Origin: Gudongella sp.
GTDB taxonomy: Bacteria > Bacillota > Clostridia > Tissierellales > Tissierellaceae
DNA: 64,000 bases
Direction of reading: 5' to 3'
Assembly (NCBI GenBank): GCA_024649995.1
Contig: JANKMX010000002.1
Coordinates: 9,446-73,445 of the forward strand
In this document: positions 24,095-42,075 of the stretch, in pieces
Layout of the letters: each line of letters begins with the position of its first letter
How positions within the stretch are numbered: the first letter of the stretch is position 1
Made by a program: the position numbers and the translations under genes
The notes under the pieces: model-generated
Databases searched by the model: none
What the model saw: only the letters and a program-made list of their open reading frames with translations
Told to the model about the DNA's origin: nothing

Positions 24095-24163
24095 AGAAAC
24101 TGGAAAAGATCAAGCAGGCTCAAAGGTGAGGCTGCTTGATTTCTAAATCAGGGGAGGATTGCC

Positions 24164-25951
24164 ATGAGTAATGATGTAATGATTGTTTTTGCTATACTTT
24201 TTGCTGCAATCATCATGTTCTCCACAGATAGGATCAGGAATGACGTGGCATCCATTATCATTATGCTATCGTTGGCATGGAGTGGAATAATACCACTCAA
24301 CCAAGCCTTTTCAGGCTTCTCATCAAATGCTGTAGTTGCAATAATGGGAGTTATGATAATAGGCTTTGGCATAGAAAAGACGGGGATAATGGACAGCTTT
24401 GCCAATATAATAATGAAAAAGGCTGGAACACAGGAGAACAGGGTAATCGCAGTGGTGATGGCAGTGGCGGGAATGATATCTTCATTTATGCAGAACATCG
24501 GAGCTGTTGCACTATTTTTGCCAGCTGTAAAGAAAATTGGAAACAAATCCGGCATAAGTCATCAGAGGCTCATAATGCCCCTGGCCTTTGCGGGAATTCT
24601 TGGTGGAACCGTTACAATGGTTGCCTCAGGGCCCTTGATCATATTGAATGACCTACTAAATGACGGAGGCTATGACAGCTTTGGGCTTTTCAGTGTAACT
24701 CCCATTGGACTTGGAGTACTCTTTGCAGGCATTCTATACTTCTTCCTTCTTTCAGGCAAGGTATTGCCAGGTGGGGAAGAAAAAAGTCAGGGAAGGAAGG
24801 ACGAGCTACTTGACATCTATAATCTCCCCAAGGAAATCCACGAGGTTGTTATAGAGAAGGATTGCGAGCTTATTGGAAAAACCATTGAAGAGCTTGATAT
24901 TTGGAGAATTTATGGAATCCATATTCTCGCACTGTGGGATTCTGGCAGCAAGACCTTTATCCCGTGGAGAAAGACTACCTTCAAAGAGGGTCAGGTATTG
25001 GCCATATTCGGGGAGGATGAGCACCTGAATCAATTCTTCAAGTCCTTCAATCTTGAACACAAGCACAACCTTGTTGTATTCAGGGAGCTTGCAGATGAGA
25101 AGGAAGCAGGTTTTGCCGAAATAATCCTGCCACCGGATTCAAATCTCAAGGGGAAGACCCTGGAGGAGATATCACTTAGAAAGAACTACAGGATAGAACC
25201 AATAACATATATAAACACCGATGGAAATAGGCTTAATCTGATGGATTGGGAAATGGAGCCGGGACTTAAGGCCATAGTTTTCGGAAGGTGGGAGGACCTT
25301 GACAGCTTGAAGAAGTCAAAGGATTTTGTGGTCATAAGTGACGTCAAGCCTCCGGAGGAAAGCTCCAGAGCTGACAAAAAAGTACATGCAATGGCAATAC
25401 TTGGTGCTGGAATTCTTCTGATACTTTTGGGAGTTTCCCTGCCACTAAGCTTTTTGTCGGCAGCTGTCCTTATGCTTTTTACCAAGGTAATTTACAAGGA
25501 GGAGCTTTACGAGGCAATAGACTGGAAAACAGTCTTCCTGCTGGCTGGTCTGATACCCTTGGGAACTGCATTTGAGCAGACCGGAGCCGCAAGGCTGACA
25601 GCCGAAGCCATAATCAGTGTAGTTGAATCGTGGAATGTATTTTTTATCCTGATTGTAATAGGACTGATCACCTCATTCTTTTCACTGTTCATGTCAAATG
25701 TAGCGGCAACTGTTCTGCTGGTTCCCTTGATACTTATCATGGGTGAAAGCTTTGGAATAGACCCAAGAGGTCTTGCTCTCCTAGTTGCGGTTGCTGCCTC
25801 AAATTCATTTGTCATACCAACCCATCAGGTAAATGCATACATTATGGGACCGGGAAACTATAAAACAGGTGATTACCTTAAGGCAGGAGGGATCATGAGT
25901 GTAGTGTTCCTTCTTGTCACTACATCGATAGTGTATTTCTTCTATATATGA
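24164..25951 (+). CDS. SLC13/DASS-family anion permease with central TrkA-C (RCK_C) domains
   Basis: Two TM bundles separated by a soluble stretch of about 170 aa that contains two RCK_C-like repeats. Confidence 0.75.
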   Translation: MSNDVMIVFAILFAAIIMFSTDRIRNDVASIIIMLSLAWSGIIPLNQAFSGFSSNAVVAIMGVMIIGFGIEKTGIMDSFANIIMKKAGTQENRVIAVVMAVAGMISSFMQNIGAVALFLPAVKKIGNKSGISHQRLIMPLAFAGILGGTVTMVASGPLIILNDLLNDGGYDSFGLFSVTPIGLGVLFAGILYFFLLSGKVLPGGEEKSQGRKDELLDIYNLPKEIHEVVIEKDCELIGKTIEELDIWRIYGIHILALWDSGSKTFIPWRKTTFKEGQVLAIFGEDEHLNQFFKSFNLEHKHNLVVFRELADEKEAGFAEIILPPDSNLKGKTLEEISLRKNYRIEPITYINTDGNRLNLMDWEMEPGLKAIVFGRWEDLDSLKKSKDFVVISDVKPPEESSRADKKVHAMAILGAGILLILLGVSLPLSFLSAAVLMLFTKVIYKEELYEAIDWKTVFLLAGLIPLGTAFEQTGAARLTAEAIISVVESWNVFFILIVIGLITSFFSLFMSNVAATVLLVPLILIMGESFGIDPRGLALLVAVAASNSFVIPTHQVNAYIMGPGNYKTGDYLKAGGIMSVVFLLVTTSIVYFFYI

Positions 25952-25975
25952 TAGGTTTTGTAAAGGAGGAGAAAG

Positions 25976-26488
25976 ATGGATTTTTTGGTGCTTGAAAGAT
26001 GGTCGCCCTATGTTGTGGGGGTTCTGATCGGATTACTGAATGTTGTCTCACTACTTGTCTCAAAGAAGCCTCTGGGGGCTTCCACAAGCTTTATGAAGCT
26101 TGGAGGGATAATCTACAGGTCCTTTGACAAGGAAAAGGTTCAAAACAACGAATATTATCAAAAGAATGAATTGAAGCTTGACTGGGGCATGATGCTGGTA
26201 CTGGGGATAATCATTGGAGCCTTCATATCGGCAATGCTTTCAGGGGATTTCAATCTTATTGCTGTTCCTAGCATGTGGGCCAATGAGATTTCAGGTAGCT
26301 TTCTGCTAAGGTTCTTTTCTGCTGTTCTGGGTGGAATTTTCCTTGGTGTAGGAGCCAGATGGGCTGGTGGCTGCACCAGTGGACATGGAATAAGTGGAAC
26401 CAGTTTTCTTTCGGTTATCAGTTGGGTGGCTGGAATCGCATTCTTTATTGGCGGTATAGCTGTGGCCTTCCTCATATACGGAATGTAG
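25976..26488 (+). CDS. YeeE/YedE-family sulfur-compound transporter, first half
   Basis: Conserved GGCTSGHG motif, 170 aa, 4 TM helices. Confidence 0.8.
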   Translation: MDFLVLERWSPYVVGVLIGLLNVVSLLVSKKPLGASTSFMKLGGIIYRSFDKEKVQNNEYYQKNELKLDWGMMLVLGIIIGAFISAMLSGDFNLIAVPSMWANEISGSFLLRFFSAVLGGIFLGVGARWAGGCTSGHGISGTSFLSVISWVAGIAFFIGGIAVAFLIYGM

Positions 26489-26499
26489 GGGTGATTAAA

Positions 26500-27045
26500 A
26501 TGGCAAAGAATAATAGAACCCTCATGCAGGGACTTATAATAGGGATATTCTTCGGTTTCTTTCTCCAGAAGGGAGGGGTCACCAAGTATGATGTTATTGT
26601 TGGACAGCTGAGGCTCATTGATTTTACGGTAATAAAAATCATCCTTACTGCAATCGTAGTTTCCATGCTGGGAATAAGCTATTTTTATCCCAAGGACATG
26701 CTTCCAGTCAAAACCAAGGCTGGTTCAATCAAAAATGCAACAATAGGTGGACTCCTGTTTGGTGTTGGCTTTGGTCTACTTGGCTATTGTCCTGGCACAA
26801 TAGCAGGCGCCATCGGTAATGGCTACATTGATGCAGTTACAGGAGGACTGATCGGGATCGTTCTTGGAACCATGATCTATGCAATGATCTATGGGAAATT
26901 GAAGGAAAAGGGAGTTCTGACACAGGATAAGTACAGTGAATATAGTCTTTTCCACCATATGAAGGGCAGCCCCTTTAAGGTGACAATACCATTTGGGGCG
27001 ATCATTGTTGCTGTGCTTTTCATAATGGAAATGGGTGGACTGTAG
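26500..27045 (+). CDS. YeeE/YedE-family sulfur-compound transporter, second half
   Basis: The ATG at 26500 (MAKNNRTL) lies 11 nt after the previous stop. Contains the LLGYCPGT motif. Confidence 0.8.
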   Translation: MAKNNRTLMQGLIIGIFFGFFLQKGGVTKYDVIVGQLRLIDFTVIKIILTAIVVSMLGISYFYPKDMLPVKTKAGSIKNATIGGLLFGVGFGLLGYCPGTIAGAIGNGYIDAVTGGLIGIVLGTMIYAMIYGKLKEKGVLTQDKYSEYSLFHHMKGSPFKVTIPFGAIIVAVLFIMEMGGL

Positions 27046-27073
27046 AGGCGAGAAATTTCGCCTCTTTATCTTT
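27045..27073 (+). terminator. Terminator-like hairpin between the YeeE/YedE pair and the reductase gene
   Basis: GAGGCGA gaaatt TCGCCTC followed by TTTATCTTT. It could act as an attenuator because an RBS and gene follow directly. Confidence 0.5.
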
Positions 27074-27089
27074 GGAAGGAGAGGATTAG

Positions 27090-28433
27090 ATGAATCAAGA
27101 GGTTGTAATCATAGGAGGAGTTGCAGCAGGAATGAGCTGTGCGGCAAAGCTATCCAGAGAAGACCCTGAAGCCAGAATAACAGTATATGAGAAGGGGAAA
27201 CACATCTCCTACGGAGCCTGTGGGTTGCCCTACTATATTGGTGATGTGATTGAGGACCACCATAGACTTGTGGTAAAGGAACCAAAGGATTTTGAAGATA
27301 CCAATGTGGATGTTAGGATTATGCACCAGGTGACAAAGGTCCTACCAGAAGAGAAGAAGGTAGTGGTAAAGAACCTTGAAACGGGAGAGAAATTTGAAAA
27401 GGATTACCACAAGCTTGTAATTGCCACTGGAGCTGAGCCGGTTAAGCCTCCCTTTGTGGATGAAAGCGTGGGGAATGTATTTACCCTAAGAACAGTGGAG
27501 GACGGACAGAGGATCAAGAAGGCAGCTTTATCAGATAAGGTTGAGAGGGTCGTTCTAATCGGAGCAGGCTACATCGGTCTTGAGCTGGTTGAATCATTTC
27601 ATAATCTTGGAAAGCAGATTTCTGTGATCAATCGGTCAGCAAACATCATGAAGCCTGTTGACCAGGAAATAAGAGAGATCCTCATAAAGGAACTGAAGGA
27701 CAAAGAAATTGAGCTTAATTTCAATGAAGAGGTAGATAAGATAATACAGGATGAGGATGGTATGGTCAAGACAGTTGTTACCGACAAGGGTGAACACCCA
27801 GCAGATCTTGTTGTGGTTGCAATTGGTGTTGCTCCAGCCACCAGGTTTCTTGAGGGAACGGGAATTGATACCCTTAGGAATGGGGCCATTGTAATCAACG
27901 ACAGGATGGAGACCAATTTAGAGGGCATTTATGCAGCTGGCGACTGTGCAACCCTTTACCACAGAATCCTCGGAAAGAATGTCCACATACCCCTTGCCAC
28001 CTATGCAAACAGGCAGGGGAGACTTCTTGGTGAAATCCTCTCCGGAAAGGACAGTAGCTTTCCTGGAGGGATTGGCGCATCTGTTGTAAAGATTTTGGAC
28101 ATCACCATAAGCGCCACTGGAGTAAACGAGAAGCAGGCAAAGGATGGAGAGCTTGATTATGAGACCGAGTTCATAAAGGGCTACAGCAATGCAGGCTACT
28201 ACCCGGGGAGCAAGCCCTTGTATGTAAAGTACATCTATGACAAGAAGACCAAGGTTCTTTTGGGAGCCCAGCTTGCAGGTGAAAAGGGAGCACAGCACAG
28301 GATTGATGCACTTTCAATAGCGATTGATAAGGGCTTGACTTTAAGAGAGCTTGCCTACAGTGATTTTGCATACACTCCTCCATATTCAGGAGCATGGGAT
28401 CCTCTTCAGGTTGCAGCAAATGTTGCTGAGTAA
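27090..28433 (+). CDS. CoA-disulfide reductase / NADH-oxidase-family flavoprotein (single redox Cys)
   Basis: GGVAAGMS FAD-binding fold, redox Cys in SYGACGLPYYIG, and a second Rossmann fold LIGAGYIGLE. Confidence 0.8.
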   Translation: MNQEVVIIGGVAAGMSCAAKLSREDPEARITVYEKGKHISYGACGLPYYIGDVIEDHHRLVVKEPKDFEDTNVDVRIMHQVTKVLPEEKKVVVKNLETGEKFEKDYHKLVIATGAEPVKPPFVDESVGNVFTLRTVEDGQRIKKAALSDKVERVVLIGAGYIGLELVESFHNLGKQISVINRSANIMKPVDQEIREILIKELKDKEIELNFNEEVDKIIQDEDGMVKTVVTDKGEHPADLVVVAIGVAPATRFLEGTGIDTLRNGAIVINDRMETNLEGIYAAGDCATLYHRILGKNVHIPLATYANRQGRLLGEILSGKDSSFPGGIGASVVKILDITISATGVNEKQAKDGELDYETEFIKGYSNAGYYPGSKPLYVKYIYDKKTKVLLGAQLAGEKGAQHRIDALSIAIDKGLTLRELAYSDFAYTPPYSGAWDPLQVAANVAE

Positions 28434-28472
28434 TATAAAGATTCTGGGGAATATATAGATAGAGGTGAATAT

Positions 28473-29588
28473 ATGGACAACAGAGATTACAAGGAGCTTA
28501 CAAAAAAAGAAAAATTGGGACGGCAAAAGGAAATCTGGAAGCTTTTCACCAAGCTGGGCTTTCTTGCCTTTGGTGGTCCTGCTGCCCATATAGCCATGCT
28601 TGAGACGGAGGCCATTGAAAAGAAGAAATGGCTCCAGCGGGAAAGATTTATGGACTTTATGGGAGCGACCAATATTATTCCAGGGCCAAATTCAACAGAG
28701 ATGGTCATGCTGGTTGGATATGAAAGGGGAGGAATACCTGGACTTTTTGTTGCTGGAGGGGCCTTTATCATTCCTGCCATGCTGTTGGTTTTAATGTTTG
28801 GGGTTATGTATGTTACCTACGGGTCTCTTCCTGAGCTGACAACGGTTCTTGATGGGGTCAAGGCTGTTATCATGGCCGTCATTGTCAATGCCCTCTACAG
28901 ACTTTTCAGAAATGTAATCAAAAGCAAGGAGGCACTATTCTTTGGTGTGGCAATAGCTGCTGTGTACCTGCTTGGTGTTGGAGAAATACCGCTTCTATTC
29001 ACCGCAGGTGTCCTTATGATGCTATGGAAGAACAAGGACAGGATTACTGGGAAAACCTACTCCCTGGCACTACCGATGATTTTTTTGACCTTCCTGAAAA
29101 TCGGAGCGGTTCTCTATGGTAGTGGCTATGTACTGCTGGCATTCTTGGAGGCTGAATTTGTTGAGACACTGGGTGTTCTAACAGAGCAGCAGATTCTTGA
29201 TTCAGTGGCTGTTGGACAGTTCACACCTGGTCCTGTGTTCACCACTGCAACCTTCATAGGATATGTATTGGGAGGATTTCCGGGAGCGGTCCTTGCCACC
29301 ATAGGAATATTCCTGCCTGCCTTTATACTGGTTATATTCCTTAAGCCCCTGATCTACAAGCTCAGGGAAAACAAATGGCTCTCAGGTGCCCTGGATGGTG
29401 TAAACATAGCATCCTTGGTTCTTATGGCAGTGGTAAGTGTAAAGCTTGGCTTGTCATCCATAATAAGTGTTACAACAGCATTGATTTTCATTGGAGGCAT
29501 GGTTGGAATTATGAAGTACAACATCAACACCGCCTGGCTGATAATTGCAGGAGGGACAATAAACTGGATAGTTCAAACGATCATATGA
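28473..29588 (+). CDS. chrA: Chromate-ion-transporter (CHR) family protein, fused two-domain form
   Basis: FGGPAAHIAM in the first half and GQFTPGPVFTTATFIGY in the second half. Confidence 0.85.
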   Translation: MDNRDYKELTKKEKLGRQKEIWKLFTKLGFLAFGGPAAHIAMLETEAIEKKKWLQRERFMDFMGATNIIPGPNSTEMVMLVGYERGGIPGLFVAGGAFIIPAMLLVLMFGVMYVTYGSLPELTTVLDGVKAVIMAVIVNALYRLFRNVIKSKEALFFGVAIAAVYLLGVGEIPLLFTAGVLMMLWKNKDRITGKTYSLALPMIFLTFLKIGAVLYGSGYVLLAFLEAEFVETLGVLTEQQILDSVAVGQFTPGPVFTTATFIGYVLGGFPGAVLATIGIFLPAFILVIFLKPLIYKLRENKWLSGALDGVNIASLVLMAVVSVKLGLSSIISVTTALIFIGGMVGIMKYNINTAWLIIAGGTINWIVQTII

Positions 29589-29613
29589 AAAGAACCCCTG
29601 AGGGTTCTTTTTT
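29589..29613. terminator. Bidirectional terminator
   Basis: AAAGAACCC ctga GGGTTCTTT followed by TTT. Confidence 0.8.
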
Positions 29614-30283
29614 AGTATAAACCATAGGTTGAATCAATGTCCTGCACGAATATAATTCCATTGCCTGGTTCATCTATTTTCATATCAGTGCTTATGGATG
29701 ATACTATTCCATCCGTAAGATCCCCTTTGGAGATGATCAGTACTATTTCCTTTTCAGGTTCAATTTCCATTCCAAAAACCTTGCTGGTCTCATGTATTCC
29801 TGAGCCCCTTCCGTTTATAATGGTGGCACCTCTTGAACCTGCCTTGTTTGCCGCATCGACAACCATCTCTCCTTTTCCTTTATCCACTATCGATATCACA
29901 AGATTGTAATCTGCCACCTTCTCACCTCTTTCAACGTTATCATTGCATTTCATTGCCTTGGTACCGAAAATTCCACTGATGGAAGTGCTAAAGGCAATTC
30001 CATGATTTGGTTTCCTGAAATTGAACCTTCTGTCCAGTTCTTCAAGTGTAGCCCTGGAGGTGTTGGAATCAGAAGCCATCAGGACAATCTCCTTCCTTGC
30101 CTCGTTAATTCCAAGAAATTCAAGAAGCTGGTTTTTGATTGTGCCAGTTCCCAAAAGGACCGTTCCCCCGCTGACGCCCTGCTTTTTGGCATGCTTCATT
30201 ATCTTGCTGGCCATACCATAATTGACAATCACTGTAATAAGATTTATTTCATCAAAGCAATTTCTGTCATTGATCACTTTCAA
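29612..30283 (-). CDS. Tandem P-II (GlnB-like) domain protein
   Basis: Two repeats: LITVIVNYGMASKIMKHAKKQGVSGGTVLLGTG and LVISIVDKGKGEMVVDAANKAGSRGATIINGRG. It overlaps the upstream membrane gene by 17 nt. Confidence 0.7.
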   Translation of the reverse strand: MKVINDRNCFDEINLITVIVNYGMASKIMKHAKKQGVSGGTVLLGTGTIKNQLLEFLGINEARKEIVLMASDSNTSRATLEELDRRFNFRKPNHGIAFSTSISGIFGTKAMKCNDNVERGEKVADYNLVISIVDKGKGEMVVDAANKAGSRGATIINGRGSGIHETSKVFGMEIEPEKEIVLIISKGDLTDGIVSSISTDMKIDEPGNGIIFVQDIDSTYGLY

Positions 30284-31757
30284 CCCCCTCCTTTCCAGAA
30301 TTCATACTGAAGAACAAGCCTAGTATCTGTAGGGTCAAAATCGGCATAAGTGCAACCATTGCAATCATCCCAAAGCCATCCAAAAGTATATCCGCCCATG
30401 GTATGGCCTCAGCTGCCCCCTGTGTGAAGGCAAGGATGAAGGTTGCAGTCATTGGACCTGTGGCAACCCCTCCGGCATCAAAGGCCATACCCACAAACAG
30501 CTTTGGGACAATGTAGCTAAGGCCGATTGAAAGGGCATATCCCGGCAGAAGATAATGCCATAGCTGAATTCCCGGGACCACAATCCTAAGCATTGAAAGA
30601 CCAATTGCCAATCCTCCACCCAGAGCCAGGGCAGTAAGAACAGCTCTCCTTTTGACGTAGCCGCTGGTTACCTCCTCAATCTGATGTGTAAGTACATAGA
30701 CCGCAGGCTCTGCCAGCATGGTCACAATTCCCAAGATAGTTCCCATGAGGATGAGAAAATAGTAGCTGTCCCGGGATGCCAGGGTATAGCCGATGATGGT
30801 TCCGACATTCATGAATCCTCCGTTTACACCCGTCATAAATAGTACCAAGCCCAGGAATGAATAGACAAATCCCTTAAGTAGCCTCCCGAAGGCCTTCTTC
30901 TCCAATTTGAAGCTTGCCTTTTGCAGGAATACAAGTATGATTAGCAAAGGGGCAAGTGATAGGATGCTTTCTCTTGTTATGCTTGAGAGCTGGGAAGAGA
31001 AGGGGTCAAATAATGACTGGGTTTGGGGCATCTGAAAGGCTATTGTTGAGCTGAGTTCACCGGTGTCCGAAAAGATGCTTAGAATCATCACAGACATTAT
31101 GGCTCCCACAGATGCAATCGATACCAGCCCAAAGCTGTCCTTCTCTCCAGCCTTACTGTCCTTCTTAAGAGCAGATACACCAACTGAAAGTGCCAGTATA
31201 AATGGAACTGCAAGGATTCCTGTCGTAGCTCCTGATGTGTCAAAGGCTATTGTCAAAAGCTGGGACGGTGTAAATATTGCCAGAAGGAATGTAATGCCAT
31301 AGAGTACGGTCAAGACCTTGTAAAGGGGTATGTTATAGACAATCCTCAGCAGTCCAAAAGCTACCATGACGGCAAGACCAAGTGATACAATCACCAATAG
31401 TGTGGTGCTGGTTATACCGCCATCAGTTACGGCATCCACCTGACTTGCTAGGACCATGAGACCGGGCTCAGCTACTGAGATGAGAAAACCCAGGACCAGT
31501 CCTGCCAATACAACAAGAAACACCTTGTTGGAGGCGGAAAGGGTTGCGCCCAGAAGTCTGCCAAGAGGAGCGATTCCAATATCCACACCTATCAGGAACA
31601 GGGTAAGTCCCATCACAATAAGGAAGACGCCCATAATGAAGGTTATGAGCATTGCGCCATCCAAAGGCGTAAGTGTAAAATTGAGCAGTATAACTATTAT
31701 GGTTATTGGAAGCACCGACAGGGAAACTTCCTTGAATTTATCCAGCAATAGGTTCAT
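30267..31757 (-). CDS. DUF1538-like polytopic membrane protein
   Basis: 496 aa and about 12 TM helices. The N-terminus and the P-II partner match my recollection of the DUF1538 / P-II pairing. Confidence 0.6.
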   Translation of the reverse strand: MNLLLDKFKEVSLSVLPITIIVILLNFTLTPLDGAMLITFIMGVFLIVMGLTLFLIGVDIGIAPLGRLLGATLSASNKVFLVVLAGLVLGFLISVAEPGLMVLASQVDAVTDGGITSTTLLVIVSLGLAVMVAFGLLRIVYNIPLYKVLTVLYGITFLLAIFTPSQLLTIAFDTSGATTGILAVPFILALSVGVSALKKDSKAGEKDSFGLVSIASVGAIMSVMILSIFSDTGELSSTIAFQMPQTQSLFDPFSSQLSSITRESILSLAPLLIILVFLQKASFKLEKKAFGRLLKGFVYSFLGLVLFMTGVNGGFMNVGTIIGYTLASRDSYYFLILMGTILGIVTMLAEPAVYVLTHQIEEVTSGYVKRRAVLTALALGGGLAIGLSMLRIVVPGIQLWHYLLPGYALSIGLSYIVPKLFVGMAFDAGGVATGPMTATFILAFTQGAAEAIPWADILLDGFGMIAMVALMPILTLQILGLFFSMNSGKEGVESDQ

Positions 31758-31889
31758 TTACTCACGTCCATTTTTATCCTAAACGACCTTCAGGTCATCT
31801 GAATAGTTATATACCCAAGTTCCTCCATAAGTACCAAAGGAATGATATAATTTGGACAGGTTCATAAATTCATTGTTAAAATCAAAAAC

Positions 31890-31903
31890 GTAACATTTGT
31901 TAC
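31890..31903. promoter_or_regulatory. Perfect palindrome GTAAC-ATTT-GTTAC, candidate Crp/Fnr-type (HcpR-like) operator
   Basis: Read directly from the sequence. Its centre is about 42 nt upstream of the TSS predicted from the -10 TAGAAT at 31927-31932. It has the same half-sites as the site in front of hcp. Confidence 0.65.
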
Positions 31904-31959
31904 TGAATATCTGATATATGTTAGTGTAGAATGTATACAGAGAATAAGGAGGTTTTTTA

Positions 31960-33204
31960 ATGAACAAATACTTTGACCCAAAGGAGAAAGTATACGATAT
32001 AACCGAAAGGTACCCGGAAACACTTGATGTATTTGCAGCAAACGGCTTTGAGCACCTGAAGAATGAGGCCATGCGCAAGGTCATGGGGAAGACAATAAAC
32101 CTTGAAACCGCCTGCAAGACAAAGAAGGTGAACCTTCAGCTTTTTGAGCAGAAGCTTGTGGACGTCATAGAGCAGACCAGGGGCTCTGTTGATGCAACCC
32201 TGAACCAGGCCAGGGAAAACGGCGATGGGGAAGTAAGCATACTTGGAGTTCTTCCATGTCCTGTAAGGATTCCCCTGATGGAAAGCTTTAACAAATGGCT
32301 CCAAGACCATGAAAAGGACCTGGATTACAAAATAGACTATGAACTGAAGGCTGCAAATATTGGAGTGGATTGGATCAGGGAAGAGATGGAGACGGCTTCT
32401 CCTGATGACATAGCTGATCTTTTCATGTCAGCTGGCTTTGACCTTTTCTTTGACGAGAAGCTTATGGGGAAGTTCAAGTCCCAGGGGGTTTTCCAGGATA
32501 TGTCAGGCTTTGAAAGCCTGAATAGGGACTTTGACAATGATAGGATCTCCCTGAAGGACCCAAAAGGCCAGTACACGACACTTGCAGTTGTTCCTGCTGT
32601 TTTTCTTGTAAATACGGAGGAGCTTGACGGACGTCAGATGCCCCTGTCATGGGCTGACCTCCTAAGGGGTGAGTTCGAGAACTCAATATCTCTGCCCCTA
32701 AACGACTTTGACCTATTCAATGCACTCCTGTTGAGCATTCACAAGGAATTTGGGGTGGATGGAATAAGAAGACTTGGGAGGGCTCATATGAGAAGCATGA
32801 CCCCTGCTGAGATGGTAAAATCCAATGTAAGGAACACATCATCAGGGATACCAACCGTTACAGTTATGCCCTATCTATTTGCCAGGATGGTAAGGGAGGA
32901 AAGTCCCCTAAAGCCGGTTTGGCCCAAGGAGGGTGCCGTAATAAGCCCCATTTTCCTTCTCTCAAAGAAGTCCAGCAGGGACAAGGTCAAACCTCTTGTT
33001 GACTATTTCATGTCAAGGGAAGTTGGCCAGATGCTGGCCACAAGCGGAAAGTTCCCCTCCACACATCCAGAGGTTAAGAACGGTCTAACTGATGACCAAG
33101 GCTTCATGTGGATAGGCTGGGATTATATCAATAGCCATCCTGACCTGGGAGCACTGATAAGTGAATTGATGGATATATTCAACGAGGAAGCAGGTGTGAA
33201 ATAG
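31960..33204 (+). CDS. Cytoplasmic periplasmic-binding-protein-like protein with N-terminal DUF1858-like domain
   Basis: No signal peptide. The N-terminal ~70 aa (VYDITERYPETLDVFAANGFEHL...MGKTINLETAC) resemble DUF1858/ScdA_N. The remainder has SBP hallmarks (VVPAVFLVN, SWADLL, ISPIFLL). Confidence 0.65.
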   Translation: MNKYFDPKEKVYDITERYPETLDVFAANGFEHLKNEAMRKVMGKTINLETACKTKKVNLQLFEQKLVDVIEQTRGSVDATLNQARENGDGEVSILGVLPCPVRIPLMESFNKWLQDHEKDLDYKIDYELKAANIGVDWIREEMETASPDDIADLFMSAGFDLFFDEKLMGKFKSQGVFQDMSGFESLNRDFDNDRISLKDPKGQYTTLAVVPAVFLVNTEELDGRQMPLSWADLLRGEFENSISLPLNDFDLFNALLLSIHKEFGVDGIRRLGRAHMRSMTPAEMVKSNVRNTSSGIPTVTVMPYLFARMVREESPLKPVWPKEGAVISPIFLLSKKSSRDKVKPLVDYFMSREVGQMLATSGKFPSTHPEVKNGLTDDQGFMWIGWDYINSHPDLGALISELMDIFNEEAGVK

Positions 33205-33906
33205 ATGAACCTAGTGATTTTCTCTGGTCCCCCCTCATCGGGAAAGACCAGTATAATACTGAAGACAATTGAGGCAATGAGGAAAAGGGACCTTCAGGTG
33301 GGAGTAGTTAAGTTCGACTGCCTCAGCACTGATGATGACATCCTTTACGAAAAGGCAGGAATACCTGTAAAGAAGGGTCTTTCAGGAGCACTTTGCCCGG
33401 ACCACTACTTTGCCTCAAATATCGAGGAGGTTGTGCAGTGGGGCAGAAGAAGGGGCCTGGACCTGCTGATCACAGAATCAGCAGGACTTTGCAACAGGTG
33501 TTCGCCCTATATCAAATCCATAAAGGGAGTCTGCGTAATTGACAACCTTTCAGGCATAAACACACCCAAAAAGATAGGGCCTATGCTCAAGGCTGCAGAT
33601 ATTGTCGTGATAACAAAGGGGGATATCGTGTCCCAGGCTGAAAGGGAGGTATTTGCATCAAAGGTGAACTCCGTCAATCCAAAGGCCATGACTATGCACA
33701 TTAACGGACTGACCGGCCAGGGAGCATTTGAATTGAGCACTCTGCTTTATGATGAGGATGAGAATCTGGAGTCTGTGACAGGAATGGAGCTTAGGTATCC
33801 CATGCCATCGGCACTTTGCTCCTACTGTCTTGGAGAGACTAGGATCGGAGACGATTTCCAGATGGGCAATGTTAGAAAGATTGAGCTGGGTGATATGGAT
33901 GAGTAG
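33205..33906 (+). CDS. HypB/UreG-like G3E P-loop GTPase
   Basis: Walker A GPPSSGKTS, CPDH, ESAGLCNRCSP (compare HypB ENVGNLVCP) and TKGD in place of NKxD. The start abuts the previous stop. Confidence 0.7.
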   Translation: MNLVIFSGPPSSGKTSIILKTIEAMRKRDLQVGVVKFDCLSTDDDILYEKAGIPVKKGLSGALCPDHYFASNIEEVVQWGRRRGLDLLITESAGLCNRCSPYIKSIKGVCVIDNLSGINTPKKIGPMLKAADIVVITKGDIVSQAEREVFASKVNSVNPKAMTMHINGLTGQGAFELSTLLYDEDENLESVTGMELRYPMPSALCSYCLGETRIGDDFQMGNVRKIELGDMDE

Positions 33907-33907
33907 G

Positions 33908-34891
33908 ATGACAATTAATAAGATACTTGAGAAATACCCCTTTGCAATGAGTTATTTTGTGGAGAACAAGCTGGATGTAGAGAATCACAAAGAAAAGACC
34001 TTCCAGGAATTCCTGGATGGCTTCACCCATGAAGAGGTAGAGGACCTGGCCATGGACAAGGAGGAACTCGCTGAAAACCTTGAGATTTTCATAGATCAGA
34101 TGAAGGAGTTTCTTGGAATCAAGGAGGAGGTTGGAGTCAGGTCGCTGACAATCCTGCCAGGGTTCGATAAATCAGGAAGTCCCGAGGGCTTCAATGAGCT
34201 TACAATAAGCACATCACAGGTGATTTCAATAGTTGGACCAACCGGAGCAGGAAAGTCTAGGCTGCTGGCTGACATTGAGTGGACCGCACAGAAGGATACA
34301 CCAACAGGAAGAAGCATACTGATAAATGATGAGCTTCCAGACAAGAAATGGAGGTTTTCATCAAACAACAAGCTCGTAGCCCAGCTTTCCCAGAATATGA
34401 ACTTTGTCATGGACCTGACTGTAATGGAGTTTCTTCAGCTTCATGCTGAAAGCAGGCTGGTGGAGGATGTTGAAGGGACAATCCAAAGGATAATAAGGGC
34501 AGCCAACAGCCTGGCAGGAGAGAAGTTCCAGCTGGACACTCCAGTTACAGCCCTGAGCGGAGGTCAGTCAAGAGCCCTTATGATAGCAGATACTGCAATA
34601 CTGAGCTCATCACCAATAGTCCTTATAGATGAAATTGAGAATGCCGGAATAGACAGACGGAAAGCACTAAACCTATTGATTGACGAGGACAAGATTGTCC
34701 TTATGGCAACACACGACCCCACATTGGCTCTGATTGCAGACAAGAGGATAATCATCAAAAACGGTGGAATAGCAAAGATTATCGAGACTACAGAAGAGGA
34801 AAAGGAGATCCTCCTCAAGCTTGAAAAGATGGATACCTACATCCAGGACATGAGATCAAGTCTGAGAAACGGTAAAACCCTTAGTGTATAA
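33908..34891 (+). CDS. Orphan ABC ATPase with ~90-aa N-terminal extension
   Basis: GPTGAGKS, LSGGQ, VLIDE and ATHD. The ATG at 33908 lies 1 nt after the previous stop. There is no permease gene in the operon. Confidence 0.75.
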   Translation: MTINKILEKYPFAMSYFVENKLDVENHKEKTFQEFLDGFTHEEVEDLAMDKEELAENLEIFIDQMKEFLGIKEEVGVRSLTILPGFDKSGSPEGFNELTISTSQVISIVGPTGAGKSRLLADIEWTAQKDTPTGRSILINDELPDKKWRFSSNNKLVAQLSQNMNFVMDLTVMEFLQLHAESRLVEDVEGTIQRIIRAANSLAGEKFQLDTPVTALSGGQSRALMIADTAILSSSPIVLIDEIENAGIDRRKALNLLIDEDKIVLMATHDPTLALIADKRIIIKNGGIAKIIETTEEEKEILLKLEKMDTYIQDMRSSLRNGKTLSV

Positions 34892-34936
34892 GTGAAAGCA
34901 TATAAACCAGTGGAAAATAATAGGAGGAATAATATT

Positions 34937-35179
34937 ATGCATGACGGATGTACAGGAAGCTTTGGAAGCGGCGAGGCAGTGGTGGACAAGATAAGGGCGA
35001 TGGGCTTCAACACAAGGCCTATGCCACCAGGAGTTACAATAACCTGCATAGAATGCGGAAATGACTTTGATATGACCCACCTTGAGACTAAATGCCCAAG
35101 CTGTGAAATGGTATACGGAGTTACCCCATGTTCAACAGCTTATCCCGAAAGAATCAAGGCTGCAGGGAAAAATTATTGA
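34937..35179 (+). CDS. Small zinc-ribbon protein (80 aa)
   Basis: The ATG follows a strong AGGAGG. Contains CIEC...CPSC plus additional Cys residues. Confidence 0.55.
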   Translation: MHDGCTGSFGSGEAVVDKIRAMGFNTRPMPPGVTITCIECGNDFDMTHLETKCPSCEMVYGVTPCSTAYPERIKAAGKNY

Positions 35180-35216
35180 TTTATTCCTGACTTGGGAAAA
35201 GAGACTAATTACGATG

Positions 35217-35250
35217 AATTCCCCTACTTAGAAAATAGGGGAATTTTTTT
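35217..35250 (+). terminator. Rho-independent terminator closing the four-gene module
   Basis: AATTCCCCT...AGGGGAATT followed by TTTTTTT. Confidence 0.85.
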
Positions 35251-35269
35251 CTGCCTTTTTCAACCATTG

Positions 35270-35283
35270 GTAACATGTGTTAC
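35270..35283. promoter_or_regulatory. Perfect palindrome GTAAC-ATGT-GTTAC upstream of hcp, candidate HcpR-type operator
   Basis: Read directly from the sequence. Its centre is about 41.5 nt upstream of the TSS predicted from the extended -10 TGTTATCAT (35303-35311). Confidence 0.7.
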
Positions 35284-35369
35284 GGTGTCCTTGCTGTAAA
35301 AATGTTATCATGGGTCTTGTGAGTTACATGAAACGACTGTAAATAACAATTGGAAAGGATGATTTTTAA

Positions 35370-37055
35370 ATGGTTGAAAGACAAAGTGGACATTCTATGT
35401 TTTGCTACCAGTGCCAGGAAGCGGCAGGTGGAAAAGGATGTACAAAGGTGGGTATGTGTGGAAAGACCAGTGAGGTTGCAAATCTTCAGGACCTTATGAT
35501 ATATGGACTTAAAGGACTTTCAGAGGTTGGCCTGAAGGCTGACGAAATTGGATACAGGATGGAAGGTCTTGACAGACTAATAATTGAAGGCCTATTCATG
35601 ACAATCACAAATGCAAACTTCGATAAGGACAGATTCTTTGAAGGTATAAAGCTTGTACTGAAAAAGAGGGATGAACTGAAATCAGTACTTAAGGAAAAAG
35701 GTGTGGATCTCGGAGAATTGAAGGATGCAGCTACATTTGCAGTAAACAGCAACGATGAGATAGTGTTCAAGTCAAACAGCGAAGAGGTTAGTATACTTGC
35801 AACAGAAAACGAAGATGTGAGATCACTCAGGGAATTGATTATCTACGGCCTGAAGGGAATGGCGGCATATGCTGAGCACGCTGACAATCTTGGATTCCAG
35901 GATGAAGAAATTTCAAAATTCATAAGAAAAGCACTTGTTGCAACCATGGATGACAGCCTGACAGCAGATGACCTTGTTGCCCTTACACTTGAGACAGGTA
36001 ACTACGGAGTTCAGACAATGGCACTTTTGGACAAGGCAAACACCTCAACCTATGGAAATCCTGAAATAAGTGAAGTAAACATAGGAGTCAGAAATAATCC
36101 TGCCATCCTTGTATCAGGACATGACCTGAAGGATTTCGAAGAGCTTCTGGAGCAGACAAAGGACAGTGGAGTTGACATTTACACACATGGTGAGATGCTT
36201 CCAGCAAACTACTACCCAACCTTCAAGAAGTATGAGCACTTTGTAGGAAACTACGGGAACTCATGGTGGATGCAGAAGGAAGAGTTTGACAAGTTCAACG
36301 GAGCCATCCTATTCACTACAAACTGTATTGTGCCTCCAAAGGCAGACTATGCTGACAGGGTTTACACAACCGGATCATCAGGATACCCAGGCTTCAAGCA
36401 CATTCCAGACAGAGTTGACGGACAGCCAAAGGATTTCTCAGAGGTGATTGAGCATGCCAAGAGACTTCCAGCACCTACTGAAATAGAGACGGGCAAGATT
36501 GTTGGAGGATTCGCTCACGCACAGGTATTTGCATTGGCAGACAAGGTGGTTGAGGCAGTGAAGACCGGAGCAATCAGAAAGTTCTTCGTAATGGCAGGCT
36601 GTGATGGAAGACAGGGCAAGAGAAGCTACTACACTGAGTTTGCAGAGGCTCTTCCAAAGGACACAGTCATCCTTACAGCTGGATGTGCAAAGTTCAGATA
36701 CAACAAGCTTAACCTTGGAGACATCAATGGAATTCCAAGAGTACTGGATGCAGGACAGTGTAACGACTCGTATTCACTGGCTGTGATTGCAATGAAGCTA
36801 AAGGAGATATTCGAGCTAAATGACATCAACGACCTTCCAATTGCATACAACATAGCATGGTACGAGCAGAAGGCAGTTATTGTGCTGTTGGCACTTCTGT
36901 CACTTGGAGTCAAGAACATTCACCTTGGACCTACATTGCCGGCATTCCTTTCACCAAATGTAGCAAAGGTTCTTGTTGAAACATTTGGAATAGGTACAAT
37001 ATCAGATGTTGAAAACGACATCAACATGTTCTTGGGTGAAGCAGCAAACGCATAA
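35370..37055 (+). CDS. hcp: Hybrid-cluster protein (hydroxylamine reductase / NO-stress protein)
   Basis: N-terminal Cys cluster [22 protein letters not shown]. About 560 aa, collinear with Hcp. Confidence 0.95.
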
Positions 37056-38219: not shown

Positions 38220-39419
38220 ATGTTTACCAATTGGCTACTTAAAAAATTTCTAAAGGATGATATAAACTACAAGGACCCTGGAACCAGAAGAAGTGTAGGT
38301 TATCTTGCTGGGATTGTTGGGGTTATTGTCAATATATTGCTTACAATAGTAAAGATAACAATAGGATTTCTTATATCTTCAATTGGGGTTGTGGCTGACG
38401 GGGTGAACAATTTGGCCGATTCCGCATCATCAATAGTCACTCTTGTAGGCTTCAGGATTTCAGGGAGGCCTGCCGACAAGGAGCACCCATATGGACATGG
38501 AAGGGTGGAGTACATCTCTGCCATGATAGTGGCCTTTATGGTAATAATTGTGGGGGTCCAATTTATCCGCTCCTCAATTGAAAGGATTATTGAACCCAAG
38601 GCTGTGGAGTTTGAAATTGTAACCTTCTCCATACTTGTGGTCTCAATTCTTTTCAAGGTTTGGCTTGCAATATTCAACAGAGACCTTGGAAATAGGATTG
38701 ATTCCAAAGGCTTGAAGGCTACGGCAACGGATGCCATGGGAGATGTTCTTATAACCTCGGTGGTTGTAGTATCAATTCTGGTCAGTCAGTTCACAACACT
38801 TCCCGTGGATGGGGTTGTTGGAGTAATTGTATCCCTGTTCATAATTTTTGCAGGCTACAATCTTGTCAAGGAGACCATGAGTCCCCTGATTGGTGAAGCT
38901 CCACCTGAAGGGATGATTCAGGGAATTTATGAGGATATAATGAAGTACAGATACATCACTGGAGCTCATGACCTGATTATCCACACCTACGGGGCAGGCA
39001 GGACCATGGCAACCATAGATGTTGAGTTTCCAGCGTCAATAGATGTCATCACAATACATGATGTCATAGACCAGGCAGAGAGGGACCTGGGTGATAAGTA
39101 TGACATGACCCTTGTCATCCATATGGATCCACTTGGACCTGAAAGTGAAGAGAGGTACCAGCTGAGGCAGAAGGTTAAGAGAATCATCAGGGCAGATGAC
39201 AGGGTTCACTCAATTCATGACTTTCATATATTGGAGGAGGGCAAGGAAAAAACCGTCGAATTTCATGTGGTGGTGACTGATGGAAAGCTTACAGGGGACC
39301 GGGATTATCATGGCCTAAAGCAGGAGCTTGAAAAGGCTGTTGATGACGAAATCGAGGGCTTTGGTTGCAGAATAATTCTTGATATAGATTTTCATGGGGA
39401 GAGAGAAAATGACATATAA
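38220..39419 (+). CDS. Cation diffusion facilitator (CDF) metal efflux protein
   Basis: Six TM helices with the DxxxD/HxxxD-type context (ADGVNNLADS, ATDAMGDVLIT) and a cytoplasmic C-terminal domain. Confidence 0.85.
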   Translation: MFTNWLLKKFLKDDINYKDPGTRRSVGYLAGIVGVIVNILLTIVKITIGFLISSIGVVADGVNNLADSASSIVTLVGFRISGRPADKEHPYGHGRVEYISAMIVAFMVIIVGVQFIRSSIERIIEPKAVEFEIVTFSILVVSILFKVWLAIFNRDLGNRIDSKGLKATATDAMGDVLITSVVVVSILVSQFTTLPVDGVVGVIVSLFIIFAGYNLVKETMSPLIGEAPPEGMIQGIYEDIMKYRYITGAHDLIIHTYGAGRTMATIDVEFPASIDVITIHDVIDQAERDLGDKYDMTLVIHMDPLGPESEERYQLRQKVKRIIRADDRVHSIHDFHILEEGKEKTVEFHVVVTDGKLTGDRDYHGLKQELEKAVDDEIEGFGCRIILDIDFHGERENDI

Positions 39420-40695
39420 CGAAAAAATAAATATGATAGAAAACTATATAAGAAGCGGTGAAAAAAAGAGAGAAAATTTCAGGGTAGGAGTTGAAATGGA
39501 GCATTTTGTAATCTGGGAGGATTCTCTTAAGACAGTGTCATACTATGGTGAGAATGGCGTTGAGGAAATCCTCAAGGAGCTATTGCCAAACGGCTGGAAG
39601 GGGACCTATGAAGGGGACCATCTCCTTGGACTTAGGAAGGATGATATTGCAATAACCCTTGAGCCTGGAAGTCAGCTGGAGGTGAGCATAGATTCAGCCA
39701 GAGATATAAGGGATCTTGAAAGGGGTTACCTGGCTTTTTTAGCTGAAGTCATCCCTCTATTGGAAAAGAGGAATCAGGTCCTGGTAACCCTAGGCTATCA
39801 TCCGGTCACAAGGATTGAAGAAATAAAGCTACTTCCCAAGAAGAGATATGATCTCATGTTCACCCATTTCAAGACCAAGGGTTCACATGCACACAACATG
39901 ATGAAGGGAACCGGAGCATTCCAGGTAGCCATTGATTATTGTGACGAGGAGGATTACAGTAAGAAATTCAGAGTGCTTAACGCTCTGGCTCCTGTTTTTT
40001 ACGGCATTTTTGAAAATGCACTCTTCTTTGAGGGGGAGCCCTGCAAAACCCATAACCTCAGGGCCTATGTCTGGATGAACTGCGACAACGACAGGGCAGG
40101 AATTGTGGAAGGAGCCTTGGGGGATAAATTCGGATACAGGGATTATGCCAGGTATGTTCTTGAAAGGCCACCAATATTCACTGTTCGAAACGGTGAGATA
40201 ATAGCCACGGGAGAGAATAGGGTAAAGGATATCCTAGACCCTGGAACTACCGGAATGGATGAGCTTGACCACCTTATGACCATGTTCTTTCCCGATGTGA
40301 GAACAAAAAAATATCTTGAAATAAGAATGATGGATTCAATTCCTTATCCTTTGAACTTCTCAGCGGTCGCACTGATTAAGGGACTTTTCTATGATCAGGC
40401 CAACCTGGATAAGCTGGTTGATTTTGTTGGTCATATTAGCATTGATAAGGTAGAGAATACAAAGATGGAGATGCTGGAGAAGGGAATGGAGGCCATGCTA
40501 AATGGAAAGACACTTCTTCAAATTGGAAGTTGGCTTCTGGAGCTTTCCAGAGAAGGACTGGCCCTGGAGGAGAGACCATACCTAAAGCCTTTGGAGGACC
40601 TTCTCATGCAGGGGAAGAACCCATACATCCATACAAGGGACAGATTCAAGAATGGTGATAGAAAATTTGCAATTGAATGGGCAATGCACAGATAA
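39409..40695 (+). CDS. Glutamate--cysteine ligase-like enzyme (GCS family)
   Basis: N-terminal FRVGVEMEHFV and ITLEPGSQLEVS are typical of gamma-glutamylcysteine synthetases. The start overlaps the CDF stop; an alternative ATG is at 39394. Confidence 0.65.
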   Translation: MTYNEKINMIENYIRSGEKKRENFRVGVEMEHFVIWEDSLKTVSYYGENGVEEILKELLPNGWKGTYEGDHLLGLRKDDIAITLEPGSQLEVSIDSARDIRDLERGYLAFLAEVIPLLEKRNQVLVTLGYHPVTRIEEIKLLPKKRYDLMFTHFKTKGSHAHNMMKGTGAFQVAIDYCDEEDYSKKFRVLNALAPVFYGIFENALFFEGEPCKTHNLRAYVWMNCDNDRAGIVEGALGDKFGYRDYARYVLERPPIFTVRNGEIIATGENRVKDILDPGTTGMDELDHLMTMFFPDVRTKKYLEIRMMDSIPYPLNFSAVALIKGLFYDQANLDKLVDFVGHISIDKVENTKMEMLEKGMEAMLNGKTLLQIGSWLLELSREGLALEERPYLKPLEDLLMQGKNPYIHTRDRFKNGDRKFAIEWAMHR

Positions 40696-40707
40696 TGAGG
40701 TGAAGCT

Positions 40708-42030
40708 ATGACAGGTGAAAAGTATCAAGAGATGTACCTGGAAATGGTTCTGGAAAACCAGGAAAGGTATAAGGATGATTATAAGAAGACTGTGGAGAGG
40801 GTAGCCAACTCCACTGCTATATACAAGAACAAGCCGGTACCATTTCTATACAATCCAATGTTCTTTTCGGAAAGTGAGGAGGAAGACCTCAGGTGGATTG
40901 GAAAGATGATGATGGATATTGGCGAGAGTATAACTGACAGGTATATTCGTGATGAGGAGTTCAGGAAAAAGTTTGGTTTCCCGGATTTTATCGAGAGGAT
41001 GATTCTTAGGGACAACAGGTATGGAGTCCATGTACCAGTAGCCAGATTTGACGTTTTCTACAGGGACAGGGAAAACTTCAAGTTCTGTGAACTGAACACA
41101 GATGGGTCCTCGGCCATGAACGAGGACAATACCATTGGCGGGATACTCCTTAGATCAAGAGCCATGGAGGATTTTATCAGGGAACATCCTGTAAGAAATC
41201 CTGAGCTGATCAAGAGCTGGGTTAGGGAAAGCATTAAGATTTACCGAAAGTGGGATGAGACAGGAAAGAAACCCAATGTGGCCATTGTTGACTTTACTGA
41301 AAGTGGAACTTCGGCTGAATTTCAACTCTTTAAGGAAACCTATGAAAATGAGGGTTACAGTTGCATCATAGCAGATCCGAGAGATCTCCAGTACAGGGAT
41401 GGAGGTCTTTATCATCAGAACTACAGGATTGACCTTGTGTATAGAAGAATTGTGACCTTTGAGCTTATAGAGAAATTTTATCAGGCGGATGAATTTGTCA
41501 AGGCCTATATGGATGATGCGGTCTGTGTGGTTGGAACAATAAGGTCCCAAGTGATTCATAACAAGATTTTCTTCAAGATACTCCACAACCAGGATACGCT
41601 GGATGGTTTGAGGGAGGATCAAAGGGAATTCATCCGAAAGCATATTCCATTTACAGGTCTATTCAAAGGGGAAGAGGAAGTGTTTCAGGAGGTCCTTAAT
41701 AACAAGAACAGATACATCATTAAACCCATGGATATGAATGCATCACAGGGTGTTTATCCAGGAAGGGATTTTAAGGAGGAAAGGTGGGAATCCATACTGA
41801 GGGACACCTTCAACAGGGATTATATCTACCAGGAATTTATAGACCCATATAAGAGAGAATTTGTCGTCTATGAAGACGGAAGGTTCAGGGGAGAGCGTTT
41901 GGGATCCATTGTAGGGATATTCATGTACAACAGAAATTACAGTGGACTATATACAAGGCTTGGCAGGAACAATATCATATCCGGGGTTACTGATTACTAC
42001 TGTGCTCCAAATATGATCGTACAGACGTAG
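40708..42030 (+). CDS. ATP-grasp ligase resembling the glutathionylspermidine-synthase (pre-ATP-grasp) family
   Basis: RFDVFYRDRENFKFCELNTDGSSAMNE parallels the RFDF...EYNADTP motif of that family. It lies 12 nt downstream of the ligase gene. Confidence 0.5.
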   Translation: MTGEKYQEMYLEMVLENQERYKDDYKKTVERVANSTAIYKNKPVPFLYNPMFFSESEEEDLRWIGKMMMDIGESITDRYIRDEEFRKKFGFPDFIERMILRDNRYGVHVPVARFDVFYRDRENFKFCELNTDGSSAMNEDNTIGGILLRSRAMEDFIREHPVRNPELIKSWVRESIKIYRKWDETGKKPNVAIVDFTESGTSAEFQLFKETYENEGYSCIIADPRDLQYRDGGLYHQNYRIDLVYRRIVTFELIEKFYQADEFVKAYMDDAVCVVGTIRSQVIHNKIFFKILHNQDTLDGLREDQREFIRKHIPFTGLFKGEEEVFQEVLNNKNRYIIKPMDMNASQGVYPGRDFKEERWESILRDTFNRDYIYQEFIDPYKREFVVYEDGRFRGERLGSIVGIFMYNRNYSGLYTRLGRNNIISGVTDYYCAPNMIVQT

Positions 42031-42055
42031 AAAAGACCGGGAAATCCCGGTCTTT
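42031..42055. terminator. Bidirectional terminator
   Basis: AAAAGACCGGG aaat CCCGGTCTTTT. Confidence 0.85.
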
Positions 42056-42075
42056 TCTACGTGTTAGAATATACA

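Follow-up and report, generated by a model that had tools for sequence, protein, structure and literature searches.

Predicted HcpR2-type operators precede hcp and an uncharacterised four-gene operon in a Gudongella genome

The stretch of Gudongella sp. DNA analysed here (contig JANKMX010000002.1, positions 9,446 to 73,445, 64,000 nucleotides (nt) in all; hereafter the window) carries two copies of the palindrome GTAAC-N4-GTTAC, one in front of hcp, which encodes the hybrid cluster protein (Hcp), with the other in front of a four-gene module that lies upstream of it. Operator 1, GTAACATTTGTTAC, occupies positions 31890–31903 and begins 70 nt 5′ of the first ATG of the module, and operator 2, GTAACATGTGTTAC, occupies positions 35270–35283 and begins 100 nt 5′ of the hcp ATG; both are exact matches to the motif, and neither is assigned a strand. 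It is very likely, in our judgement, that the two palindromes are operators of an HcpR2-type activator that controls hcp and the four-gene operon as two tandem units. As operators they add new examples to a kind already known, and the motif, like the control of hcp, is textbook comparative genomics.

The two palindromes stand out clearly from the rest of the window. Re-reading of the sequence finds both at the coordinates given in an earlier note on this DNA, which had called them identical; the half-sites are indeed identical, but the N4 spacers differ at one base. The pattern GTAACNNNNGTTAC is matched exactly twice on the two strands of the 64 kb window, compared with 0.02 matches expected from 100 dinucleotide-preserving shuffles, none of which reaches two, and the absence of any other intergenic palindrome of this kind, also remarked on before, holds on either strand. 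At all ten specified bases both sites agree with GTAACnnnnGTTAC, the HcpR2 consensus of Clostridium, Bacteroides, Thermotogales and Treponema (Rodionov et al. 2005, PLoS Comput Biol 1:e55, PMC1274295), which is the motif that the earlier note had named. When up to two mismatches to GTAAC-N4-GTTAC are allowed, the window contains 26 matches versus 12.6 expected. A 22-nt weight matrix, trained on 84 sites from the related loci described below, scores operator 2 at 20.4, operator 1 at 19.9 and the best other position of the window at 4.4; because this next-best score is so low, the window contains exactly two credible sites of this type. One two-mismatch sequence, GTAATATTAGTTAG (4499–4512), is intergenic and located 25 nt 5′ of an open reading frame (ORF) at 4537; with a matrix score of 0.5, it is probably a chance match. 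The match statistics and the matrix scores together rule out chance occurrence, or a generic repeat, as the source of the two palindromes.

In the published analysis, the HcpR2 motif is tied to a proline at the position of Glu181 in CRP (PMC1274295). Clostridial HcpR2 sites lie 74–134 nt before the ATG and those of hcp at −87 to −134, including the Clostridium tetani hcp site tTGTAACATtTGTTACcG at −101 (Table S1, PMC1274295); operator 2, at −100, falls inside this range. The window sites resemble those of the HcpR2 regulon (profile 3, nnGTAACnnnnGTTACnn) in the 5-4-5 palindrome, in the preferred spacer starting with A and in the distance before hcp, and the likeness extends in relatives to the proline at the Glu181 position and to a regulator gene that has its own site and is divergent to a permease/ferredoxin pair. 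The published clostridial regulon comprises hcp, frdX, hcpR, CAC0759-COG3945, a sulfate permease and a nitrite/sulfite reductase, and an HcpR2 site is also assigned to dnrN of Bacteroides fragilis (PMC1274295). An operon of a binding protein, a GTPase and an ATP-binding cassette (ABC) ATPase is not on this list, hcp in the window is not accompanied by frdX, and the class Tissierellia lies outside the 2005 coverage. As to the signal, hcp and frdX of Clostridioides difficile are induced about 200-fold by a nitric oxide (NO) donor, a response that is lost in an hcpR transposon mutant (PMC12915319), and in Porphyromonas gingivalis the binding of NO to the HcpR haem is reported to lead to hcp transcription (PMC12750200).

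The arrangement seen in the window recurs well beyond it. The first protein of the module has 2376 homologues at E ≤ 1e-10, and a scan of one genome per species yields at least 465 loci that encode it, the best 80 of which were kept as related loci (given L numbers); the closest relatives, at 76% identity, are Tissierellaceae and Gudongella metagenome-assembled genomes (MAGs), which makes the organism of the window an uncultured member of Tissierellia. Among sequencing runs, one small mud metagenome is the single one that contains the window in full. In every one of the 80 loci that reaches far enough, the genes for the binding protein, the GTPase and the ATPase lie side by side in an unchanged order. 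The gene for the small fourth protein is present in 42 of the loci, mostly from Tissierellia, and hcp is found downstream, approximately 0.1 to 8 kb from the module end, in 38. An exact GTAAC-N4-GTTAC precedes the first module gene in 49 of the 80 loci, at a distance of 70–190 nt in all but one, and most of these 49 have another exact copy directly 5′ of hcp (34 loci with an hcp copy). The 80 loci and the window, 1.35 Mb of DNA, contain 86 exact matches, where base composition predicts, as a rough estimate, about two. Fifty of them lie within 400 nt 5′ of the binding-protein gene, 35 before hcp and a single one before a Crp/Fnr gene; this last match (L045:20708, 17 nt 5′ of the gene) belongs to an Anaerosalibacter-like member of the Tissierellales, in which the module, hcp and hcpR sites are all on one contig. 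Since the pairing of hcp and operon sites recurs in about 70 other anaerobe genomes, the four-gene operon very probably belongs to the nitrosative-stress response.

Twenty-two loci that lack GTAAC (L033, L041, L044, L049, L051, L052, L055, L057, L058, L061, L063–L065, L067–L069, L071, L073, L074, L077, L078 and L080; mostly Lachnospiraceae and Oscillibacter) have GTTGK-N4-MCAAC at the same place, approximately 90–150 nt 5′ of the module's first gene, and a TGnTAnnAT extended −10 element follows it with unchanged spacing. This second motif is like the C. thermocellum HcpR operator (profile 5, TGTTGnAnnTnCAACA), whose regulator has a serine at position 181 (PMC1274295), and it stands before orthologous modules with the same −41.5 spacing; the window itself carries the GTAAC motif, and the GTTGK class serves as a co-variation control. 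Of the 78 loci that include enough upstream DNA, 71 have an exact motif of one or the other type, and one-base variants are found in four more (L056, L059, L072 and L075).

The change of motif is accompanied by a change of regulator. A Crp/Fnr gene is located near the module in eight loci, adjoining it in seven and 7 kb downstream of it in L045, and Pfam confirms all seven of the eight that were scanned. Alignment to CRP shows that the regulators of GTAAC loci (L045, L046 and L056) read R-P-S-L at CRP positions 180–183, whereas those of five GTTGK loci (L033, L041, L044, L068 and L063; four Lachnospiraceae or Clostridia and one Muricomes) read R-S-A/S-L, and this replacement of Arg-Pro by Arg-Ser at positions 180/181 agrees with the specificity rule of Rodionov et al. 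(PMC1274295), the Arg-Ser proteins matching the C. thermocellum type. In L033, L041, L044 and L068, the regulator gene is divergent from the module with the palindrome in between, which is the usual hcpR-hcp layout. We take the module to be a genuine target of the regulator because its site follows the regulator through a change in DNA specificity, which would otherwise be hard to explain. Site conservation, together with this co-change of motif and recognition residues, strongly supports the earlier proposal that the module belongs to the hcp regulon.

The window contains no Crp/Fnr ORF detectable by phmmer with Escherichia coli CRP as the query or by a hidden Markov model (HMM) of eight HcpR-like proteins, as the earlier note had stated, and a Pfam scan of ten ORFs of 215–265 residues elsewhere in the window assigns them to other families or to none. 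A profile of the three Arg-Pro regulators retrieves 882 proteins at E ≤ 1e-20, and two of these, P0189 (from a Tissierellia MAG) and P0172, have the recognition helix QRPSLFRE and read R-P-S-L. Their genes are divergent to one for an ArsP-type permease that includes a ferredoxin domain, after which comes a gene for a hemerythrin or DUF438 protein, and an exact GTAAC-N4-GTTAC is located in each divergent gap, a layout like that of C. tetani CTC00896–CTC00898 (Table S1, PMC1274295).

The same motif could in principle be read by a Crp/Fnr paralogue of equal specificity that responds to oxygen, redox state, carbon monoxide or metal rather than to NO, in which case the two operators would be part of a regulon for anaerobic or redox conditions in general. 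Two HcpR2 paralogues with a common GTAAC motif are present in C. tetani (PMC1274295), modules of Oscillibacter lie beside superoxide dismutase, ferritin-like, DtxR-like and CobW genes, and the neighbourhood in the window is rich in sulfur and redox genes. Against this, no gene other than hcp has the motif in common with the module in nearly every locus, HcpR-dependent induction of hcp by NO is experimentally established in two phyla, and both recognition helix and gene context (hemerythrin/DUF438 and permease-ferredoxin genes) place the regulators that were found in the HcpR2 branch. We therefore consider a regulator that senses something other than NO improbable, and favour the NO-responsive HcpR2 type.

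Both operators are followed by a predicted −10 element on the plus strand, and the two elements are found where the earlier note had placed them. The module promoter has TAGAAT (31927–31932), which begins 37 nt past the palindrome start and puts the palindrome centre at about −42.5, and the hcp promoter has the extended element TGtTATCAT (35303–35311), whose hexamer begins 36 nt past the palindrome start and puts the centre at −41.5, a value that assumes that the −10 hexamer spans −12 to −7. In palindrome-anchored profiles of the related loci, the TAtAAT hexamer most often begins 36 nt past the palindrome start, as it does at 27 of 35 hcp sites and at 26 of 50 module sites; the offset is 35 or 37 nt in eight further module promoters, and it is 37 nt in three module sites besides that of the window. 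The predicted class II position near −41.5, proposed in the earlier note, is supported by conserved −10 spacing, exactly for operator 2 and with one additional nucleotide for operator 1. The −35 regions (for example, TGAATA after operator 1) resemble TTGACA poorly, and the −10 elements TAGAAT and TGtTATCAT are recognisable. In the profiles and alignments, intergenic conservation is limited to the half-sites, the −10 element, the ribosome-binding site (AAGGAGG at 31946–31952, plus strand, for the first module gene, the GGAGG of which is kept in relatives) and the start codon, and the N4 spacer and other positions have drifted; the anchored profiles of module and hcp promoters show no conserved promoter element 5′ of the palindrome. 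Like class II promoters of E. coli FNR and CRP, the two promoters have a putative dimer site that overlaps the −35 region, with a centre predicted at about −41.5, a good or extended −10 element and a poor −35 element, but the half-site differs, with GTAAC in place of TGTGA or TTGAT, and the starts here are predicted.

We read hcp and the module as two units rather than one long operon because a terminator-like hairpin lies between them and because loci in which hcp comes straight after the module (L039, L042 and L056) still keep a separate site in front of it. The hairpin, recognised by RNA folding in the gap between the module and the hcp promoter (35216–35250, plus strand), pairs GAATTCCCCTA with TAGGGGAATTT and is followed by a T tract, as in an intrinsic terminator; a simple terminator scan missed it on account of its 9-nt loop.

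Transcript data come from relatives, and no RNA sequencing run containing the window was found. A sediment metatranscriptome contains 85–90%-identical relatives only, in which the homologous ORFs are transcribed, and informs on nothing beyond this. Four wastewater metatranscriptomes contain contigs approximately 100% identical to the locus of Clostridium sp. Cult1 (L038). There, contigs of the upstream gene end at 9894–9896, positions 9897–9985, which include the site (9918–9931) and TATAAT (9954–9959), are uncovered, and the first module contig begins at 9986, with the predicted start near 9966. The word depth of hcp is 10–100 times that of the module. Separately, a segment inside the ABC ATPase gene (L038:12205–12684) has a word depth of 365–1400 in the four metatranscriptomes, compared with 10–100 in the rest of the module.

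In the mechanism that we propose, a dimeric Crp/Fnr activator belonging to the HcpR2 subgroup, the gene for which would lie in another part of the genome, would sense NO or nitrite stress and bind both palindromes. Placed at about −41.5 (operator 2) or −42.5 (operator 1), the dimer would stand in for the −35 contact and recruit RNA polymerase to a SigA-type promoter, and two separate tandem transcription units would be switched on, one for hcp, with its function in NO and hydroxylamine detoxification, and the other for the operon at 31960–35179. We infer the transcription starts, activation rather than repression, and the NO signal; activation is assigned by analogy.

Several points weigh against this mechanism. 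The class II geometry at both promoters rests on predicted −10 elements, and operator 1 is 1 nt beyond the consensus spacing, owing to a single-base insertion visible in the alignment. The flanks of operator 1, aacGTAAC...GTTACtga, deviate from the extended consensus TnGGTAAC...GTTACCGA. The loci are related by descent, and the site counts (86 exact matches, for instance) are not counts of independent events. Tissierellia as a class has a cognate HcpR2 regulator, and that of the window's organism is predicted, with its gene outside the window; NO as the signal for clostridial and Tissierellia HcpR2 would be an extrapolation from C. difficile and P. gingivalis. The RNA contigs of L038 are compatible with the model but, as assembler contigs of a distant relative, are too coarse for a 5′ end, and low-depth contigs run from the module through the hcp promoter into hcp, showing that the units are not fully insulated there. 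Finally, a further promoter-like element, TGGACA-18-TGtTAAAAT at 31853–31882, just 5′ of operator 1, agrees with the hexamers at 10 of 12 positions and has a TG extension; transcription from it would begin near 31889.

This last element raises the possibility that operator 1 occupies +1 to +14 of an upstream promoter as a repressor site, with operator 2 alone activating. The element is closer to the promoter consensus than the TAGAAT promoter is. It has no conservation, however; 48 orthologous module promoters show no information 5′ of the palindrome, and their downstream −10 element is conserved with a fixed spacing. Promoter-like matches in this AT-rich stretch are near the chance level (9 versus 5.8 expected), and the Cult1 relative has no RNA contig over the palindrome. 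A repressor site is, on this evidence, highly improbable, and an activator site upstream of TAGAAT is the reading that we retain.

The position of operator 1 between divergent genes allows yet another use. On its other side, the minus strand encodes a DUF1538 membrane protein (30267–31757) and a P-II-like protein (29612–30283), and the operator might serve this operon instead of, or besides, the module: the palindrome is symmetric and located 133 nt from the DUF1538 start codon, and in L043 and L054 a DUF1538 gene, accompanied in L043 by that for P-II, recurs on the same strand between the module and hcp. The mirror spacing on the minus strand, however, falls on TTATGA or TATGAA, both of which lack the final T that is invariant in −10 elements, and the upstream neighbour of the module differs among loci, whereas the site keeps its position and its −10 element on the module side. 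There is accordingly very little to be said for control of the DUF1538 operon, and we assign operator 1 to the module.

We note in passing that the DUF1538 gene lies at L043:13411–15539, where a P-II gene accompanies it, and at L054:9460–10833, where the contig ends within DUF1538; the recurrence hints at a functional link. The DUF1538 protein of the window is weakly UmpA/UmpB-like.

The four genes of the operon point the same way and are closely spaced. The first (31960–33204, plus strand) encodes a 414-residue protein in which an N-terminal DUF1858 domain (Pfam, 3.6e-18) precedes an FbpA/PotD-like solute-binding fold (SBP_bac_6, 4e-78). The protein has no signal peptide, and its DUF1858 domain is cytoplasmic. 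The AlphaFold model, with a predicted local distance difference test score (pLDDT) of 74, has as its best folds in the PDB the ferric-binding proteins (FbpA, FutA, HitA and KfuA) and the PotD type, and a sequence search of the PDB matches the DUF1858 domain only (2fi0, E = 0.006). A faint ScdA_N match of DUF1858 (E = 0.035) is below any threshold. The second gene (33205–33906, plus strand) encodes a 233-residue GTPase of the G3E family, which includes HypB, UreG and CobW (Pfam cobW, 3.8e-13, above threshold); UreG and HypB are its matches in the PDB, but its NCBIfam hypB score (2.8e-14) is below the cut-off, and it is an equivalog of neither hypB nor ureG. It is the most conserved protein of the module, at 78–93% identity over the 80 loci, and contains the motif set of G3E GTPase metallochaperones: Walker A (GPPSSGKT), ExxG (ESAG), (N/T)KxD (TKGD) and Cys/His motifs (LCPDH, ESAGLCNRCSP and CSYC), of which LCPDH and GLCNRCSP are at least 95% conserved among 77 sequences.

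The third gene (33908–34891, plus strand, starting at ATG 33908 or 33899) encodes a soluble ABC-type ATPase (Pfam ABC_tran, 4.5e-14) in which Walker A, signature, Walker B and H-loop are all intact and the short N-terminus is DUF1858-like, by a weak match. The fourth gene (34937–35179, plus strand) encodes an 80-residue cysteine-rich zinc-ribbon protein; an earlier ORF call had its start at GTG 34892, and the homologues point instead to ATG 34937, from which the protein begins M-H-D-G-C. An M-H-(D/E)-G-C start and a CxxC...CxxC pattern are present in all 39 homologues, and the commonest weak Pfam match of this family is HypA (36 of 39 at E ≤ 1, best 4.9e-5). The window protein itself scores 15 bits against HypA (PF01155), where the cut-off is 28.9, and a PDB profile search returns only generic zinc ribbons; an NCBIfam scan finds no family for the first or the fourth protein. 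The adjoining hcp gene (35370–37055, plus strand) encodes a 561-residue hybrid cluster protein/hydroxylamine reductase (Pfam Prismane, 1.6e-177; NCBIfam NF003658, 852 bits with a cut-off of 367).

A canonical binding-protein-dependent ABC importer is rejected for this operon: across the 80 loci, the three core genes have no conserved permease gene as a neighbour, and the first protein lacks a signal peptide and starts with a cytoplasmic DUF1858 domain. The current annotation of the operon as components of an iron importer is probably wrong. Most likely, the operon serves in cytoplasmic handling of a metal or metal cluster during NO stress and would be induced together with Hcp, a biochemical role suggested by the protein families. 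DUF1858 proteins occur in NO regulons, as with the NnrR target bsl7085 of Bradyrhizobium, and another, DrpB, adjoins the nar operon of Thermus; among the papers searched, none connects DUF1858/SBP_bac_6 proteins or a GTPase with the maturation of Hcp or with HcpR.

The module resembles described G3E systems (HypA/HypB for hydrogenase, UreG/UreE for urease and CooC for carbon monoxide dehydrogenase (CODH)) in several respects. The Cys/His motifs of its GTPase are like CPH of UreG and ENVGNLVCP of HypB, its zinc-ribbon protein shares the M-H-(D/E) start with HypA, though below the Pfam HypA threshold, and the co-regulated Hcp is a metalloenzyme of the Prismane/CODH family. A cytoplasmic FbpA-like protein and an ABC-type ATPase, however, are part of no described G3E system, and the target enzyme of the module is hypothetical. 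In co-regulation with hcp by NO-responsive regulators, and in the faint ScdA_N likeness of DUF1858, the module also recalls the RIC/YtfE/ScdA/DnrN repair of iron centres, but it contains no hemerythrin-like di-iron domain, and the ScdA_N likeness is sub-threshold.

We know of no helper for Hcp cluster assembly. One speculative reading, to which we give a modest chance at best, is that the operon encodes an NO-inducible cytoplasmic metallocentre machine, in which the FbpA-like protein would hold iron or a cluster fragment, and the GTPase, its HypA-like partner and the permease-less ATPase would draw on nucleotide hydrolysis to build or repair the hybrid [4Fe-2S-2O] cluster of Hcp. In a broader variant, the operon might salvage iron from NO-damaged Fe–S proteins.

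The surroundings of the module in the window (22736–29588 and 38220–43286) contain sulfur, redox and metal genes, none with an HcpR-type site. They encode a metallo-beta-lactamase-rhodanese fusion, two YeeE/YedE-type sulfur-transport halves, a pyridine-nucleotide disulfide oxidoreductase, a chromate transporter, a cation-efflux protein, a GCS2 glutamate-cysteine ligase, a glutathionylspermidine-synthase-like protein and a MinD/ferredoxin protein. In an Oscillibacter sp. (L057:7301–9775 and 13089–14276), the module is flanked by genes for a DtxR-type repressor with a FeoA domain, an Fe/Mn superoxide dismutase, a ferritin-like protein and a full-length CobW, a context of metal and oxidative stress with no hcp nearby.

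In sum, the probable novelty lies in the addition of a widespread uncharacterised operon to the HcpR regulon. The operon is present in at least 465 representative genomes, and in approximately 90% of 78 loci it stands behind an HcpR-type site at activator spacing, across two HcpR DNA specificities. A large family of proteins annotated as 'ABC transporter substrate-binding protein' would thereby gain a testable context, nitrosative stress, and the operon becomes a candidate accessory system for Hcp. If the proposed role in building or repairing the Hcp cluster were true, the operon would be the first system proposed to be dedicated to maturation or repair of Hcp, and the periplasmic-binding-protein fold would have a new intracellular use.

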